Virus record (IMG/VR): IMGVR_UViG_2724679236_000013
Location: 1-22,583 of that record
Length of the DNA stretch: 22,583 nt
Source of the DNA: a virus
Taxonomy: Duplodnaviria > Heunggongvirae > Uroviricota > Caudoviricetes
Reading direction: 5' to 3' (one strand)
Shown: positions 1-7,994 of the stretch, one piece after another
Layout of the letters: each line of letters begins with the position of its first letter
Numbering within the stretch: position 1 is the stretch's first letter
Notes under the pieces: model-generated
Database searches by the model: none
What the model was told of the DNA's origin: nothing
Seen by the model: the letters and a program-made list of their open reading frames with translations, nothing else
Program-made: the position numbers and the translations under genes

Positions 1-2181
1 TTATGCTACAACTCCACCATTAACCAAAAGTCTCTCGGCTCCATTACTGCTTCCTGCCCCACCATTTGAGAACCTGTTTGTTACACCGTAGTAGAAATTG
101 GGATTCACAAAAGCATTGGCAGAACCTGTTGTTCTTGCAAGCCTGAAGGCATTTTTTGTGCCAATAAATGTTATCCCTCCCCATGGCAGTTGAATTGTTG
201 TGTCAACATAAGTCTGACACCACACACCATATGCAAATCCCTTAATTACACCACCAATAATAATTGCATTTGAAGGTTCTCCTGCAACATAAACTGCGGA
301 GTTAGCCGTTGAGTCTGTCAGGGTTCCTTTCGCATTCAGATTATTCAGGGTACTTGTTGCCGCCGCACCTGATGCAAAAACGACACCATATCCATCCGTG
401 GCTCTTTCAACAACAATGTTATTGAGGATGTGATCACCAAAGACTGTCGCTCCAGATACTGGAGAGAGAAATACACTATTACCCGCAGCCCTGACAGTCC
501 TGTGGCCATTAACAACAACACCATTAGCTTCACCAGTAATGTATATTCCTGAACCTTTGCTATCAAAATCTACATTATTAATCATTGTTAACTTTGAATT
601 ACCCACTCTATCCTGAATACGATAAGCCCCTGAACCAGATTGACCAAATCCTGAAACAATATTGTTTGAGATTACATCTCCATCAACAATGTCTCCAATA
701 AGTATACCTCCAGAGATATTTGAAGAATCTGTTTTGATGCCAACATTATAGATAATATTGGCATCAATAATTGATGGTGGATACGAGACAGAGCCGTCTG
801 CCCCGCCTGAACGATAAATGCCAGTCCAGTTAGTATCACGAATGATATTATGTGCAATCAATATTGAACCGCCGTAAGTTTGATGGCTATTATAGCCAAA
901 CTCAATACCGTGCCTTTTATTGATTAGCGATGAATCCTTCGCAGTGAAATCAGAGTTGTAGGTGAGAATTGTGTTATTTGTAATAATAATATCCCTGTCA
1001 GCAGACAAGGCGTTCACATTTATTCCCTGGCTGGCATCTGACAGTAGCAAATTACCTATAATTTTACCTCCCTTTGATGCCCCTGGAGTACCAGTGTAAG
1101 CGACTATATCACCTCCAGTGGCAAATGTACTGGTTAGGTCCCAATCATTAAGCCAGCATAAATTATCAATAGCTTCCCACTGCCTGCAGCTCTGGAAGAA
1201 TATCCCTGCATTTTTCCATCCGATGCTTCTGCAGCGCCTAACAAATGCCTGCTTAAGTCCAACCATTCTAAATCCATTTGCAGTTTCAGCAGCCGTAGAT
1301 GGTGTCGCACTAACGTTTTTAACTTCAAGCCCTTCCAATTGAAAGATTGTTTGGTCATTTTCAGGCGCCATTACACCGTTAATTTCTGGCGCGGTATATT
1401 CAACTATCATACCGTCGGCAGTTACCCATGGATTAACGCCAGTAAACAAAAGGCCGACTGATGACCTGAATACGCCAGGACTACCAATACAACGATTTTG
1501 AGTGGCCCACCTTGAAAGACCAGTTGCACTGTCAAAGGTATCGTCATCAGGTATAGCACCACATTCTGGCGGAGTGAGAGCATCTTTCTTAACGTTAATC
1601 CATCTCCCCTGACCACTAACTGATGATGGCATGATGACTGAGAATCCATCATGGGCCTCTGTGCTAGTTGCATTCCATCTGAAACAACCACCACCAACAC
1701 CTCTTCCAGCATGAAAGCTTTTTACCGACACTCTCTCCCCGTTATCAATCAGGGACAATTGGGAGAAGGATTGCAAGTCCGCTACCGATTCAAACTCCCC
1801 AATCATCGACATGCCATATGGAGCTTCCAAGTCATGTTTTAGCGCGGCAGGATCATACTTCAACACATTAGGAAAATAGAACTGCTGAGCACCATACGCA
1901 TCATAAACAGCCATAGAATGGCCATGTACAGTAACGAATTTGGCAATCTGTCCGTTATATACCGGATATCCAGCAGCGTTAATGATGATTGGTTGCGAAA
2001 CAGGAATGTGAGAGCCGTCTTCGTTCTCCACATAAACCTGAATCTGGTTTTCAGGATTTACCGGGTCTGTGTCAATTTTACCGATATAAATTTTGCCATT
2101 GGCTACGGCTTTAAAAGAACGCGCCATAGTGAAGAGTTGCGAAGGCATCGATACAATCACATTGGCTGTAATGTCTGTCAT
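1..2181 (-). CDS. Tailspike protein (P22 gp9 family), 726 aa: conserved N-terminal head-binding domain, divergent C-terminal receptor-binding domain
   Basis: The first ~110 aa ([13 protein letters not shown]...[23 protein letters not shown]...VLKYDP) closely match the P22 tailspike head-binding domain as I remember it; the remainder is Gly/Asn/Ile-rich as expected for a beta-helix. Stop codon TAA lies at positions 1-3. Last gene of the late block, as in P22. Confidence 0.9.
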
Positions 2182-2303: not shown

Positions 2304-3206
2304 TTAAAGTTTAATTGAGTGGCACGCTCTATCACGTATCGCTGCGAATGAAGCTATCTCTTTAAGTGCCCAGCTTTGCTCAGCCATTAAATGGCGAAGT
2401 GCTTTTAGCTCGGCTCTTACTGCTGAAACGTCATACCCCGCTTTTGTCAGAATATCGATTAGTTTATACGCCGGACTGCATTCAACGAGTGCGCTGCGGT
2501 CAAGAGCAACAGTATCACCGCATTGCTGCCTGATAATGGCGTAAGGTGCATTTTCAGCAAACCATGAAATCGGGAAGTTAATATCCAGTTTCGGCGCTGG
2601 TAACTCTTCTTGTTTGCCGATGAACTCACCTTCAAGCACTACCCTGTGGATGTACTCTACGGCTTGCGGTATCTGAGATGCATCAAGCTCTTCAATACTT
2701 TCCACATTGAAACGCTGATGAATCATTGCATAAGCTTCTGGGTACATTAGATGCTTTTTGCTGACTAGCATATTTACAGCATCACGAAGCGGAGTCCTGT
2801 CATCAACAGATGTTTTCTTACGTGCATTTTCTGCCTTTCCCTTTGTCCAGTAGTCATGCAGCACAGTAAAGCATTCTTCCTGGTACTGAATCAGTTTATC
2901 GCGGATGTCAGCACGAACTTTCTCAGGGTTGATGCTGAACAGCCATCCATTTAACTTCTTCAAAGGAAGGCAGAGTAACTTACGAAGCTTCCCATCAGCG
3001 GCAACCATGTTCATATGAACACAGTTGAATTTGCTAATCTGCTTCATGAGTTTTGTTTGCTGCGTTGACCAGCTCATTCCAAGGTTTTCAACGATTGGCT
3101 TCATCGCAACATATGCAACTCCGGCAGCCATGGCGGTGATAATTTGCTGACCGTTGAATGGTACGTAAGAGGTGTTCACTGCTTCTAAAATTGCTATACT
3201 ATTCAT
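2304..3206 (-). CDS. ant: Antirepressor Ant (immI region), 300 aa
   Basis: Lies directly downstream of the Arc-like gene and upstream of the tailspike, the P22 immI arrangement. Start chosen at the internal Met ([10 protein letters not shown]...), which is preceded by GGAG; this gives 300 aa, the size I recall for P22 Ant. The 322-aa extension in the ORF track is probably not translated. Confidence 0.75.
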
Positions 3207-3438
3207 GTTGGTTTTTCTCCACGGATTTACTGACAACCGAAGCCCTGACTGTTCCCGCAGTTGGGGCTTCACTGTTTTGATTTCTTTGCCGCATCAAGCA
3301 TCACTTCTGAAAACGTGCGCTTGCCACTGAATACTCTTTCTCTTCTCAATTTTTCGTTCGTGCCAAATGATTCGCCATGAACAAAATTTGGTCTTAAAAT
3401 GGTAATCGCAATCTCTTTGACTACTGCATCCAAGCGAA

Positions 3439-3579
3439 TCACACCGTTATCCCCTCTCTCTTCAGGCTGTCCATCACCCGTTTAATTACTTCTGCGCTAA
3501 ATGAGCGACACTCTTCCTTTGCTTTCTCTTCAAGGATTTTTTCTAACTTCTCTGGCATACGCAGTGTTTTTACCTTCAT
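3439..3579 (-). CDS. arc: Arc-like ribbon-helix-helix repressor, 46 aa (below the ORF-track length cutoff)
   Basis: Hand translation of the minus strand gives MKVKTLRMPEKLEKILEEKAKEECRSFSAEVIKRVMDSLKREGITV, preceded by GGAGG. It resembles P22 Arc (…FNLRWPREVLDLVRKVAEENGRSVNSEIYQRVMESFKKEG…, from memory). Sits immediately upstream of ant. Confidence 0.7.
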   Translation of the reverse strand: MKVKTLRMPEKLEKILEEKAKEECRSFSAEVIKRVMDSLKREGITV

Positions 3580-3683
3580 TGCATCCTCCGTTGTATGTGG
3601 TACGCATACATAGTATTTAGGTACGCATTGATAGTCAATAGATACCTACATATCCTGTGGTAAAAATTATTCAGGATGCGCCG
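3580..3683. promoter_or_regulatory. Divergent promoter/operator region between arc-ant and the Mnt-like genes
   Basis: A 104-bp AT-rich spacer between divergent starts. GGTACGCAT occurs at 3599-3607 and 3620-3628 (21-bp spacing), and an inverted repeat TAGGTA (3618-3623) / TACCTA (3643-3648) is present. Position corresponds to P22 Pant/Pmnt with the Arc and Mnt operators. Confidence 0.45.
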
Positions 3684-3941
3684 ATGTCTGATCGTAAGTA
3701 CAAAAACCCTCAAGTGAATCTGAGGCTTCCTGTAGAGATAAAGGAACGTCTTATTGAACTGGCTGAGGCTAATTCTCGTTCATTAAATGCTGAGATGGTC
3801 GCAGCACTTGAAGCATGGACCGAAAAAAACAAACACATTCAAGCACTAGATCTTGCAACTATAGCATCACGATTGATAGATCTTGAGCATGATGTTGAGA
3901 AGTTGAAATGCATGTATGGCAACGATGAAAACAAAGGTTAG
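3684..3941 (+). CDS. Mnt-like ribbon-helix-helix repressor, 85 aa
   Basis: The N-terminus (NLRLPVEIKERLIELAEANSRSLNAEMVAAL) has the Arc/Mnt RHH signature and resembles P22 Mnt as I remember it. ATG at 3684 is preceded by AGGA; the ORF track's start at 3657 is a GTG without an obvious ribosome-binding site. Divergent from arc-ant, as mnt is in P22. Confidence 0.6.
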   Translation: MSDRKYKNPQVNLRLPVEIKERLIELAEANSRSLNAEMVAALEAWTEKNKHIQALDLATIASRLIDLEHDVEKLKCMYGNDENKG

Positions 3942-4182
3942 AGACATAGCCCCATATAGCGTAAGAATGCCAGATAGCCTCAAGCGCGACCTGACCATAA
4001 GAGCATCGAAAAACGGACGCTCATTAAATTCAGAAATAGTTATGATCTTGCAAGCCGCTATTGATGAAGAAAAATCACCAAGATCGATAGAAGGTTTTGC
4101 TCAACAAGAATCTGAAAAATTTAGGGAGGCTCTTCTTAAGACTCTCAGCAGCATGTACGGAGAAGATAAAAAACCCACCTGA
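3916..4182 (+). CDS. Second Mnt/Arc-like RHH protein (paralog of the upstream gene), 88 aa
   Basis: RHH-like N-terminus (VRMPDSLKRDLTIRASKNGRSLNSEIVMILQAA). Its C-terminus ends ...MYGEDKKPT, against ...MYGNDENKG in the upstream protein. Start is uncertain (ATG at 3916 or 3925, neither with a strong ribosome-binding site); it overlaps the upstream stop, suggesting translational coupling. Confidence 0.5.
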   Translation: MATMKTKVRDIAPYSVRMPDSLKRDLTIRASKNGRSLNSEIVMILQAAIDEEKSPRSIEGFAQQESEKFREALLKTLSSMYGEDKKPT

Positions 4183-4192
4183 CGGTGGGTTT
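4168..4192. terminator. Bidirectional rho-independent terminator between convergent genes
   Basis: AAAAAA-CCCACC-tgac-GGTGGG-TTT: a 6-bp GC-rich stem flanked by an A-run and a T-run. It overlaps the stop of the + strand RHH gene and sits directly beside the stop of the minus-strand toxin-like gene (4191). Confidence 0.55.
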
Positions 4193-4640
4193 AGTCAAAC
4201 ATAGTGTTTCTAAAGTCTCTCGCATACCCTGCTAACACTCTCATTCTATTATGATTGTTAGCAGACATGTGAGCTACAGGATGAAAAAGAGCAATCAATG
4301 AATACCTGTTCTCATCAAAAAGATTTTGTGCATAAACGAGAGCGGTATTGGATGTTTTATGCCACTGCAACTTTTGCGGTGTGCTGATATCTGTGCCATT
4401 TTTTATTGGCTCAAATTTATTTTCACCAATTGCTAAATGAAGGTGCATAAGGCCTGCATCTTCAATATCAGGAGGTCGATGATAAGAGGTGTCTCTGCCA
4501 AAATAGCTGGGCAACGTTCCCGTAGACTTGTAGATGATAAAATCATCTACAAGTGTTTGTTTTAAATCAGGAAACTCAACAAAAACCGGGGAGAAAAAAT
4601 AGTCAAAACTATCCTGATTATATTCCACGGTTACTTGCAT
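4191..4640 (-). CDS. Putative YafO-family toxin-like protein, 149 aa
   Basis: Motifs YFGRD...HLHLA...ALVYAQNLFDE...LIALFHP...NHNRM resemble E. coli YafO (ribosome-dependent mRNA interferase) as I recall it; not verified by search. GAGG ribosome-binding site; start lies 8 nt after the upstream gene's stop. AT-rich cargo DNA. Confidence 0.5.
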   Translation of the reverse strand: MQVTVEYNQDSFDYFFSPVFVEFPDLKQTLVDDFIIYKSTGTLPSYFGRDTSYHRPPDIEDAGLMHLHLAIGENKFEPIKNGTDISTPQKLQWHKTSNTALVYAQNLFDENRYSLIALFHPVAHMSANNHNRMRVLAGYARDFRNTMFD

Positions 4641-4648
4641 GTTTTACC

Positions 4649-5215
4649 TCAGTGGAAGTTACCAGAGTGAAACACACGAGTCCCGTGCTCAGCAAGCGCA
4701 CGCAAACCAGCCATATCTACGGAACTATCAAAAACAACCGGAACACATGAGCGTTGTTTAATAAGACTATTCAGGTTGGTTACGGCAGATCTGGCATCAG
4801 CAACAACGATATAGATATCTCTTGCGATCTCTTTAAAATCAGCAGAAGCTTCTTTGAATACCGATTTCATTGCCCCTTCAAGTCCTCTCAATTGATGCTC
4901 TATCAATCGAGACTTTTCTGGTTCAATGATAGACAACACATTGTCTACATTCTCATCGGTAGCGTTTGCAAGAACACGATAAGCGTATTTCAGCATTCGA
5001 GACAATTCTTTAATCGAAGACACCGCCTCATGAAGCTCATCATTAGCCCGTTCACTGCTGAATGAGGATTGATGGTAAGCGTGCTGAACGTTATCAGTAA
5101 CAACCACCTCACAACTGAACGCAGAAGCTTGCTGTAATAGCAAACCTATTGCGACTCCAGCTTTGGCAGCGTTCAAGCTAAACATTTCATCAATCCTATT
5201 AGTCTCATTGCTCAT
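4649..5215 (-). CDS. Hypothetical protein, 188 aa, translationally coupled upstream partner of the YafO-like ORF (candidate non-canonical antitoxin or regulator)
   Basis: Strong ribosome-binding site AAGGAGG 5 nt upstream of the ATG at 5215 (the ORF track's longer form starts at a TTG). No resemblance to YafN/DinJ/RelB or RHH antitoxins that I can recognise; no transmembrane segment evident. Confidence 0.6.
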   Translation of the reverse strand: MSNETNRIDEMFSLNAAKAGVAIGLLLQQASAFSCEVVVTDNVQHAYHQSSFSSERANDELHEAVSSIKELSRMLKYAYRVLANATDENVDNVLSIIEPEKSRLIEHQLRGLEGAMKSVFKEASADFKEIARDIYIVVADARSAVTNLNSLIKQRSCVPVVFDSSVDMAGLRALAEHGTRVFHSGNFH

Positions 5216-5390
5216 ACAAACCTCCTTCTTATCGGAGATTATCAATAGCTATGCATCCATTGAATACACGCTATGCGCAATAAGTTTACGTCACGTGATA
5301 TCATTATGCAACCACCGTTCTATCACCGACTAACTTTACTCCCACTCCTATACATCATCTGGTATCCTGCGCAAAACTAAGGAGGTTGGT
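5216..5390. promoter_or_regulatory. Divergent intergenic control region of the cargo island
   Basis: A 175-bp AT-rich spacer between divergent starts (5215 minus, 5391 plus). It contains overlapping 8-bp palindromes TCACGTGA (5291-5298) and TGATATCA (5296-5303), candidate operator sites. Confidence 0.4.
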
Positions 5391-5837: not shown

Positions 5838-7994
5838 TTACTCCTGTGCCATTCCGCTTAGCGATGCCACAATTCCAGCTCTTGCTAAACGCTGGAACTC
5901 TTCGTTTCCTAGTGCCTCGCGTATTGCCTTTACGGCGGCCTTATTTGCCATAAATCTGCGTTCCGCCGCCGCTAATGCACCATCACTTGCCCCAACCTTA
6001 ACTGCCTTTGTTGCCTCTTGAACAGCCTTTTCAATAGCGTAACGACCACTGCGGGATGCAGCTAACTTTTCTATCGTCCCTTTAGCTATAGATCCAGAAA
6101 CAGCCCCTACAACACCGCCAACAATCCCTCCACCAGTAGTACCAACAATAGCCCCTGATGTTGAATTGCCTATTGCATTGAGAACTGTCATGACAGCTTT
6201 TGGCAGTCCTTGCTCAAGAGAGTTAATTGCCGGTATAGAGCGCCCCGTATGCTCTACATATCGCAGTGGTCTGGTTGCTGCTCTGGCAAGGTCGCTGTAT
6301 GCCCTAGCAATCTTACCCATTTCTGGCGAGTGCCTACTAATGGCAGTAATGTTCTGCGGCGTAAGGATCGACGCTATATGGAATACGCCAGCAGACTCTG
6401 ATTTACCGCCACGCACCCCTTGCGATACCGCATCTTGTAATATTGATGCAATTGCAGGAGATCGCTCAGACTCTGGCAGCGCGCCAATAATCTGATGAAA
6501 CTTTCCTGTCCCACTTTTTGATGAATTTTGCAAGGCTTTAATACCATCAGTGACTAACTGATCAGTTGCAAGGTTTCTAAACGCTGCTTCAGCCTGTTCT
6601 TGTGCTGTAAATCTTGCTTTTGACAGATCATTAGCTTTTTGCCAGTCATCAAGAAAACCGCCATTTTGAGCCATTATGCGCATATCTTCCGTTGCTGCAT
6701 CACGAAGCTCCGCCATGCGCCTTGCCGTATTTGCCTCACCAGACCTTATATACTTCTGCTCAGCGTCAGCAAGTTTACTTCGCCATGCCTTCATGGCATC
6801 AAACGTGATTCCTTTTTTACCAGTTTTAGCATAAGCAGATGCAAATTGTTTCATCTCAGGAGTTAGCGGCATGCCAGCCAAAATATCACCCTGAATTGTA
6901 GCGTTCAGGTTTGACATTCTGGCCTTTGCGTCAGGCATCGTGGAGCGGACGCTATCCCATGCTGCCTTTTCTGAGTTCTTCATTTTATCAATACTTGCTA
7001 AAACCCTTTGTTTTATGGCTGCACTTTTTTCTGATGCAGATCCAGCCTCAGCACCAAGTTCATCAAGTGCTGAGTGGAATTTCGACTGTATTTCACTAAA
7101 AGCCCTAGTATGTGCATCCTGAACAATTCCTGGTTCGGATGCCAATATCCCTTCGGCTTGTGCAATTCCACGACTTCCAGATCGCATTCCTGGTGTTAAT
7201 GCGTTTATATCAATTCCAGCAGACTCAGCCGCTTTTGCTACATCTTCGGACACATTAGCGGCCTGACTGGCAATTGACTGACGCCCAGCACCTGACTTTG
7301 CCATCCTGGAAACATCATTAGCAGAATTCAGTGCTGCACCACCAAGAGCCTGTGAAACCCTTGGCGCAATAACGCGCCCGACACCTGAAAGAACGCCTTG
7401 AGCACCAATATTGATACCACCGTTAACGGCAGCATTTTGTGCAAAATCACCCTCCTGATTTGCAGCATCAGCAAGAGAACCGGCAATCATGTTTCCTGCG
7501 GAACCGATGTCTCCTGCGAGCTTTGCTGGCGCTCCAGCAGCTTTTGCTGCTGTGCCAATTGGCAGGAGATACCCACCAATTGTTTCACCGGCTTGCGCGT
7601 AAGGGTCTGTCGGTCGATCGACTGGACGATAGACATCATCCAAAACCTTGGGGCCACCAAGCCCCTGGCTGATTGCATTAATCAGACTTGCGCCACCCTG
7701 CAATACGTCAAATGGTATGTTTACCAGACCACGACCAGCCTGTTCTGCAATTTGCCCTGCACTTTGACCACCTGTGAGCCAATCACCAGCTTGTTGCATC
7801 AATGATGGTTCTTCTTTCTGCTGCTGAGGTGGAGGGTATGCTGCATAAAACTGATCTCTTGCTTCAGCCCATTTGTCACCAGCCTTAGGGGCAACAACCT
7901 CATCAAAATATTGCGCTTGAGCCTGTGCTTTCTGTTCTTCAGTTAACGCCTGATACTGTGGAGAAGCGATAACATCTTTCCATGCTTTAGCCAT
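5838..7994 (-). CDS. Ejection (injection) protein, P22 gp16 family, 718 aa
   Basis: Synteny: last of the gp7/gp20/gp16 trio before the immunity/cargo region. Ala/Gly/Gln-rich composition typical of ejection proteins. Its start overlaps the gp20 stop (TAATG). Confidence 0.7.

Follow-up and report, generated by a model that had tools for sequence, protein, structure and literature searches.

The stretch of DNA analyzed here (22,583 nt, hereafter the window) is part of an Escherichia coli P22-like (Lederbergvirus) prophage. Positions 3200–4250 share about 96% identity with phage CUS-3, and positions 3440–3945 are 99.6% identical to E. coli LI60C3; the latter region was found at ≥80% query coverage in 111 of 5426 complete E. 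coli genomes. The immI module of the window is complete, consisting of the antirepressor gene ant, the sar RNA, a 46-aa Arc-like gene and a divergent Mnt-like gene, and is located between the genes for the DNA-transfer (gene 16-type) protein and the tailspike (Table 1). The immI slot of P22-like phages, between the gene 16 homologue and the tailspike, has been referred to as the "ant moron" (PMC2629481), and it is this slot that the module occupies. The rightward mnt1 unit and the leftward arc-ant unit share a single intergenic control region, the boundaries of which had been given exactly in a first-pass annotation of this DNA. All three regulators encoded here, the Arc-like protein, Mnt1 and Mnt2, are ribbon-helix-helix proteins. 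The module as such is of a known kind: its sequence has been public since CUS-3, and its genes are labelled "Arc family DNA-binding protein" by PGAP.

Table 1. Coordinates of the immI module, its neighbors and the elements of the arc-mnt control region in the window.
Feature	Position	Strand	Evidence or remark
Tailspike, head-binding N-terminus	1..2181	-	ORF
ant antirepressor, 300 aa from ATG at 3206	2304..3206	-	Pfam P22_AR_N, E=2.9e-45
sar antisense RNA, with terminator 3239–3270	3207..3273	+	Rfam RF00262, 87.7 bits vs gathering score 43
57-aa ORF of the Pant operon, between arc and ant	3269..3442	-	phrog_17642, E=1e-43, unknown function
arc-like, 46 aa, ribbon-helix-helix	3439..3579	-	Pfam Arc PF03869, E=2.9e-9
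arc-mnt intergenic region, 104 bp	3580–3683		arc start codon 3577–3579 (-); mnt ATG 3684
Conserved immI control core, 65 bp, promoters and boxes	3592..3656		gapless alignment in most of 89 loci
19-bp dyad TGTATGTG-GTA-CGCATACA around O1, center 3601	3592..3610		7/8 arm pairs
O1 box, GGTACGCAT, consensus GGTAYGCA	3599–3607 (8-nt box 3599–3606)	+	GGTA and GCA each kept in 27–28/30 lineages
Pant-like promoter: TTGACT 3638–3633, 17-nt spacer, TACTAT 3615–3610	3610..3638	-	consensus scan; predicted start ~3603
O2 box, GGTACGCAT, consensus GGTACGYA	3620–3628 (8-nt box 3620–3627)	+	TACG 3622–3625 invariant in 30/30 lineages, positions not fixed by the alignment anchor
Pmnt-like promoter: TTGATA 3628–3633, 17-nt spacer, TATCCT 3651–3656	3628..3656	+	consensus scan; predicted start ~3663
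O3 box, GATACCTAC, degenerate, consensus GRTAYSYA	3641–3649 (8-nt box 3641–3648)	+	T3643, A3644 and A3648 invariant in 30/30 lineages
mnt1, 85 aa, ribbon-helix-helix and C-terminal helix	3684..3941	+	Pfam Arc PF03869, E=3.3e-10
mnt2, 88 aa, second Mnt-like gene	3916..4182	+	ribbon-helix-helix, different immI type
DNA-transfer (gene 16-type) protein	5838..7994	-	phrog_770, E=3e-214

The start of the 57-aa ORF overlaps the arc stop codon (GTGA); no Pfam match was obtained for this ORF, and annotated homologues are present at the same position in phiv205-1, 611R6, EC.P3 and Emek and absent from P22. The sar stretch and the 5′ end of ant are 97–100% identical to those of P22 and epsilon34, but the neighboring arc, operators and mnt are unrelated, which results in a sharp mosaic boundary. 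On the other side of the module, a bidirectional terminator (4171–4192) parts mnt2 from the gene for a YafO-type toxin domain protein (4191–4640, minus strand; PF13957, E=3e-22), which lies downstream of the gene for a 198-aa protein of unknown function (4649–5245, minus strand; phrog_8416). This pair may constitute toxin-antitoxin or defence cargo of the ant moron. Mnt-type repressors are widely mislabelled as "partition protein ATPase", in PHROGs (phrog_795 and phrog_2685) as well as in the RefSeq records of SEN22, epsilon34 and Emek.

Between the divergent Arc-like and Mnt-like genes, i.e., at the position of the Pant/Pmnt operators in P22, a direct repeat and an inverted repeat had been noticed in the first-pass annotation and read as operator elements. 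The direct repeat GGTACGCAT is exact, its two copies (O1 and O2 in Table 1) lie 21 bp apart from start to start, i.e., two helical turns as described, and no further exact copy occurs in the 22.6-kb window. The inverted repeat reported at 3618–3648 is likewise present (TAGGTA, 3618–3623; TACCTA, 3643–3648) and extends to 18-nt arms (3614–3631 and 3635–3652) that are complementary at 14 of 18 positions and centered on 3633. The chance occurrence of such repeats was estimated by shuffling the 104-bp intergenic region 5000 times with its dinucleotide composition kept: a direct repeat of ≥9 nt without mismatch arose in 115 of the shuffles (p ~0.02) and an inverted repeat with 18-nt arms and ≥14 pairs in 22 (p ~0.004), and the 6-nt inverted repeat by itself is unremarkable. 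The self-identity of the core reaches 57% at lag 21, compared with 15–40% at every other lag between 5 and 29. GTAYG occurs four times in the 104 bp against 0.23 expected from its density in the window, and GTAY is the sole motif family enriched in the control region.

As read from the sequence, these repeats are three evenly spaced GGTAYGYA boxes of 8–9 bp with a GTAC core, i.e., one architecture and not two elements. The box cores are centered at 3601.5, 3622.5 and 3643.5. The reverse complement of GTAC is again GTAC, and with cores phased by 21 bp this makes O2 and O3 read as an inverted repeat about 3633 as well, O3 being the right arm of the TAGGTA/TACCTA pair; the direct and inverted repeats thus become one architecture. 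The earlier reading of the repeats as operator elements stands insofar as they are conserved (see below), but they are three 21-bp-phased copies of one box and not a pair of elements, one for each protein. O3 is the most degenerate copy and matches 5–6 of the 8 box positions in the E. coli clade. In Photorhabdus and several viral contigs, O3 is simply a further direct GGTACGCA; the full GGTACGCA or GGTATGYA stands at O3 in 17 of the 89 loci compared, including Photorhabdus khanii. The expectation under autoregulation that a stronger O3 accompanies a stronger Pmnt -10 was not borne out (Spearman -0.12, p=0.6).

A further element, absent from the first-pass annotation, is the TGTAT arm at 3592–3596, which forms the 19-bp dyad around O1 with ATACA at 3606–3610. 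TGTAT and GCATACA are conserved, and the dyad is the positional counterpart of P22 Omnt, at the equivalent place beside the arc ribosome-binding site. It is not significant alone (1204 of 5000 shuffles) and was rejected as an independent statistical signal. Parsing into omega-like heptads was rejected, since the autocorrelation at lags 7 and 8 (0.28 and 0.23) equals background and that at lag 21 is 0.57; an extra GGTACGTA at 3160, inside ant, was judged a chance match because 1.65 such matches are expected.

Two sigma-70 promoters of opposite direction with overlapping -35 hexamers are predicted in the control region. The Pant-like promoter would drive leftward transcription of arc, orf57 and ant, and the Pmnt-like promoter rightward transcription of mnt1 and mnt2. 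Their hexamers match the consensus at 9 of 12 positions, and shuffles of the wider region give equally many hits in the scan. The Pant-like hexamers are found at the same place in Photorhabdus by an independent scan and across the alignment of relatives; the TAnnnT pattern of the Pmnt-like -10 and T3656 are invariant, and A3663, the predicted start, is kept in 27 of 30 lineages. Along the DNA the elements follow each other in the order O1, Pant -10, O2, overlapping -35 hexamers, O3, Pmnt -10, so that the boxes bracket every hexamer of both predicted promoters. O1 is placed at about -4 to +5 of the Pant-like promoter, O2 lies inside the Pant-like spacer and abuts the Pmnt -35, and O3 lies inside the Pmnt-like spacer. 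In P22 (L005), the same scan placed the promoters at 2772–2800 (+) and 2805–2777 (-), in agreement with the annotation of Pmnt/Pant and arcO in epsilon34. The P22 promoters are superimposed over ~34 bp, whereas only the -35 hexamers overlap in the window; accordingly, the distance between the predicted starts is ~37 bp in P22 and ~60 bp in the window.

Relatives of the locus were retrieved via protein, not DNA, similarity, so that the repeats themselves were not selected for. Eighty-nine loci were compared: 8 seeded with Mnt1, 80 viral contigs seeded with the Arc-like protein, and the window. The Mnt1-seeded loci originate from Arsenophonus, Phlomobacter, Xenorhabdus, Photorhabdus and Chimaeribacter, and their Mnt proteins are 51–59% identical. 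The whole core is kept in 7 of these 8 loci, an insertion having removed everything left of O2 in the eighth (L016), and the core is kept in all 80 Arc-seeded loci; a few loci carry a 1–3 nt indel left of O2. The core is 76–96% identical to that of the window, a figure that excludes the search pattern of one DNA-seeded search, compared with 32–50% at the third codon positions of mnt, which are saturated. The first-pass annotation had made its reading depend on conservation of the repeats in relatives, and they are conserved far above the neutral level. Of all the evidence that the repeats are real, this conservation weighs most: O1 and O2 match GGTAYGYA at 8 of 8 positions in 81 of the 89 loci. 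In a per-position profile built over 30 non-redundant lineages, the variable positions are 3597–3598, 3603, 3613, 3616–3619, 3650 and 3653, and the flanks (3583–3591 and 3657–3667) contain little information. The invariant bases of O2 and O3 (Table 1) fall in promoter spacers, outside the hexamers, and promoter function alone imposes no constraint at such spacer and leader positions.

These data bear on the explanation that the repeats are not operators at all, and would instead be the neutral remains of a tandem 21-bp duplication, or else only elements of the promoters or of a leader RNA, e.g., a hairpin in late or Pant transcripts. The greater distance between the predicted starts than in P22 corresponds to roughly one extra repeat unit, the region folds as RNA at -19.5 kcal/mol, and a terminator-like scan flagged the dyad, all of which would fit this explanation. 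However, a neutral duplication is contradicted by conservation across genera that far exceeds neutral, and the invariant bases lie outside the hexamers. The RNA fold has a z-score of -1.56, with 11 of 200 shuffles folding equally well, which does not favor an RNA structure or attenuator, and a Pant transcript from ~3603 would hold only half of the dyad. We regard a non-operator origin of the repeats as very improbable.

The predicted DNA-reading parts of the repressors are inherited together with the core. PQVNLR[LM]P, the Mnt strand, occurs in each of the 89 loci, and the Arc N-terminal strand, this Mnt strand and the core are linked in all 89, the rest of Arc being mosaic: its N-terminal ten residues travel with the intergenic region and mnt1, the C-terminal part of the window's Arc is shared with the phiv205-type Arc, and SEN22 and ETEC4075 carry another. 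Such linkage of strand and operator would be expected if the two form a co-adapted unit. In L016 (Xenorhabdus sp. PB62.4), a transposase-like insertion (~1380–1500) removed arc, O1 and most of O2, and the -35 hexamers, O3, Pmnt and mnt were retained; this locus is thus a natural "orphan mnt" derivative of the window's immI type.

P22 immI, with Arc and Mnt, is the textbook system of DNA recognition by ribbon-helix-helix proteins, and to our knowledge the only immI operators characterized so far are those of P22. P22 Omnt (AGGTCCACGGTGGACCT) and Oarc (ATGATAGAAGCACTCTACTAT) have no match with ≤3 mismatches in the whole window, consistent with the earlier remark that the repeats differ from the P22 operators, and the intergenic regions of the window and P22 cannot be aligned by eye. 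The solved relatives of the repressors are 1par/1arr (Arc) and 1mnt (P22 Mnt, the best for Mnt1). Alignment to these structures predicts V3/T5/R7 as the DNA-reading residues of the Arc-like protein, compared with Q9/N11/R13 in P22 Arc (T5 aligning with N11 and R7 with R13), and Q10/N12/R14 as those of Mnt1, compared with H6/N8/R10 in P22 Mnt. Mnt1 resembles P22 Mnt over residues 8–43 only, and the C-terminal part differs; a single-sequence AlphaFold model of Mnt1 is weak (pLDDT 73), its helix 57–79 being the only hint of oligomerization. The distinct immI specificity implied by the first-pass annotation is, at the level of sequence, well supported, as the operators differ from those of P22 and so do the predicted DNA-reading strands of both repressors. 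By sequence, the window would lie outside the P22 specificity group (P22 and epsilon34), with operators, predicted strand residues and superimposed promoters all unmatched. As Mnt1 carries Q/N/R like P22 Arc, TAGA-like boxes were considered as its sites and rejected: the only TAGA (3640–3643) is unconserved, with TAGG or TAGT in other loci, as is TAGTA at 3611, which changes to TATTA.

It is likely that the boxes are the operators of the immI ribbon-helix-helix repressors, with a specificity and a layout unlike those of P22. In the proposed mechanism, ribbon-helix-helix dimers would insert their β-ribbon into the major groove at the box cores, which lie exactly two helical turns apart on the same face of the DNA, and RNA polymerase would be blocked. 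With the identical and near-invariant O1 and O2 occupied, Pant would be turned off and the antirepressor thereby silenced; with the weaker and more variable O3 occupied, Pmnt would be turned off. The anatomy of the sequence and its conservation, the families of the proteins and the lack of the P22 operators are observed directly; we infer binding, protein-site pairing, oligomeric state and transcription start sites.

With regard to which repressor occupies which site, we lean slightly, and tentatively, to the following assignment. Mnt1, presumed to be a tetramer through its C-terminal helix, would bridge O1 and O2 and keep ant off in the lysogen, O3 would serve as a low-affinity autoregulatory site, and the Arc-like protein would act on the GTATG/CATAC dyad (3592–3610) and shut Pant after infection. 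The half-sites of P22 Arc and Mnt are about one turn apart (1PAR and the Mnt literature), and two small Arc-type dimers placed 21 bp apart are too distant to touch; bridging of O1 and O2 would therefore require the putative tetramer geometry of Mnt1. We know of no Arc- or Mnt-family protein with such a two-turn bridging geometry. Strands and core are linked in 89 of 89 loci, and no natural Arc/Mnt hybrids suitable for site assignment were found among the 80 Arc-seeded and 8 Mnt-seeded loci. Two Arc strand classes, KVKTLRMP and KPSSVRFP/EPVSVRMP, both occur with identical boxes.

About equally likely is an arrangement parallel to P22, in which Mnt1 would bind the dyad at the Pant start and repress Pant only, and the Arc-like protein would bind the boxes in both spacers and repress both promoters. 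P22 Arc indeed represses both promoters, and the location of O2 and O3 in the Pant and Pmnt spacers would provide for this. The distance from the dyad to the arc start codon is 13 nt, compared with 17 nt for P22 Omnt, and the dyad's length of 19 bp and half-site spacing of ~11 bp would fit an Arc- or Mnt-type tetramer. On the other hand, direct cooperation between small Arc dimers would not be possible over 21 bp, the dyad is insignificant by itself, and its left arm tolerates single changes in otherwise identical E. coli sequences (TGCATG, TGTGTG, TGTACG and TGTATA), which the boxes do not.

A switch with shared operators, in which both repressors would bind the same three boxes in opposite order of affinity, as lambda cI and Cro do at OR1–OR3, seems unlikely. 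Three related sites between divergent promoters, the single enriched motif family and an Arg at the equivalent strand position of both proteins (R7 and R14) would agree with it, as would the center of O2, which falls at about -40.5 relative to the predicted Pmnt start and so resembles the position of an activator site. However, the analogy is purely architectural, the central strand residues differ (Thr/Ser versus Asn), and conservation of the TGTAT arm points to a further, different type of site. A three-operator switch made wholly of ribbon-helix-helix proteins, with boxes shared in opposite order and Mnt1 tetramers bridging two turns, which would have been kept at nearly every base between E. 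coli phages and the prophages of insect and nematode symbionts, is a similarly doubtful prospect.

The assignment that we slightly favor involves Mnt1 and leaves Mnt2 aside. The first-pass annotation had considered both Mnt-like proteins as ligands of the control region, which is unlikely for the second. Mnt2 is identical over 83 of 83 residues to the primary Mnt of phage vB_EcoP-611R6 and shares 30% identity with Mnt1. The control region of 611R6 (L003 2440–2550) is built from GTGA/TCAC palindromes, and no motif of this type, the cognate operator of mnt2, was found anywhere in the window. Mnt2 is thus probably an orphan repressor that targets a different immI type, and not a ligand of the window's control region. 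The slot downstream of mnt1 is also filled elsewhere (L001, L067, L068 and L013): CUS-3 (L001 3261–3509) and two viral contigs carry a P22-type Mnt there, and Arsenophonus carries another ribbon-helix-helix gene. Second-slot Mnts may be orphan repressors by which the lysogen is protected against Ant from superinfecting phages whose immI type differs.

In the literature searched, no study of the immI type of the window, its operators, binding, footprints or transcripts was found. This second immI type is widespread: 111 or more of 5426 complete E. coli genomes carry it, and it is also found in CUS-3, in SEN22 and in Photorhabdus, Xenorhabdus and Arsenophonus prophages. Its repressors are homologous to those of P22, but the operator sequences that go with them are unrelated and the geometry of promoters and operators is different. 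It thus offers natural tests of how the strand residues (V/T/R and Q/N/R, compared with Q/N/R and H/N/R) set specificity and of whether two turns can be spanned by an Mnt-type tetramer. Which P22-like phages can induce each other's prophages through Ant is a further question on which this type bears. The result is an incremental one and not a new principle.

P22 immI and the module of the window agree in gene content, order and orientation, and both lie between gene 16 and the tailspike; their ribbon-helix-helix repressors and Ant are homologous, sar and the ant 5′ end are nearly identical, and the operators, putative in the window, are placed in the arc-mnt intergenic region. The two systems differ in the operators themselves, since those of P22, Omnt (17 bp) and Oarc (21 bp), are palindromes distinct from each other and the window has three direct 21-bp-phased boxes and one dyad; P22 also has one Arc operator in a common promoter spacer, which is not so in the window. 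Arc comprises 46 aa in the window and 53 aa in P22, and the window adds the 57-aa gene and a second mnt.

CUS-3 and the UTI89-type E. coli prophages belong to the same immI type, with ~96% identity over arc, the intergenic region and mnt1 and with the same boxes; O3 of CUS-3 carries one change (GACACC), and the second mnt of CUS-3 is P22-type, whereas that of the window is 611R6-type. According to Villafane et al. (2008; PMC2629481), arc is apparently missing from CUS-3, and the corresponding region (L001 2480–2961) is annotated only as "boundary sequence bsq2", without an arc gene. This "bsq2" encodes a 46-aa Arc-like protein (MKVKTLRMPEKLEK...), by which the published view of CUS-3 is corrected. 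Phage Emek (L008 2410–2504) has TAGTAC-C-GTACTA and a repeated CGTACTACTA in its control region; Emek and 611R6 thus each use a repeated short motif of their own, which points to several immI specificity classes in Lederbergviruses.

Beyond the immI modules, ribbon-helix-helix dimers are known to bind short repeated boxes, direct or inverted, in the omega heptads, the MetJ met-boxes and CopG, with a spacing of 7–8 bp or adjacent to each other; the window differs from these arrays in having no 7-bp periodicity, only lag 21 standing out. Lambda OR1–OR2–OR3 resembles the window, by analogy only, in having three sites between divergent promoters, two strong ones on the lytic side and a weaker third on the maintenance side. 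Lambda OR is bound by helix-turn-helix proteins at 17-bp palindromes spaced by 23–24 bp, and the sharing of sites by two proteins is only hypothetical in the window. The operator of the P2 C repressor consists of direct 8-bp repeats two helical turns apart that span the -10 of Pe (PMC2995052). The systems are unrelated, P2 C being a helix-turn-helix protein with two sites and not three, and they are alike in geometry only: O1 and O2, direct repeats 21 bp apart, lie on either side of the predicted -10 (3610–3615) of Pant, the early, lytic-side promoter. In P2, direct repeats two turns apart on both sides of a -10 hexamer are a proven geometry for a repressor, and they serve as a precedent for O1 and O2.
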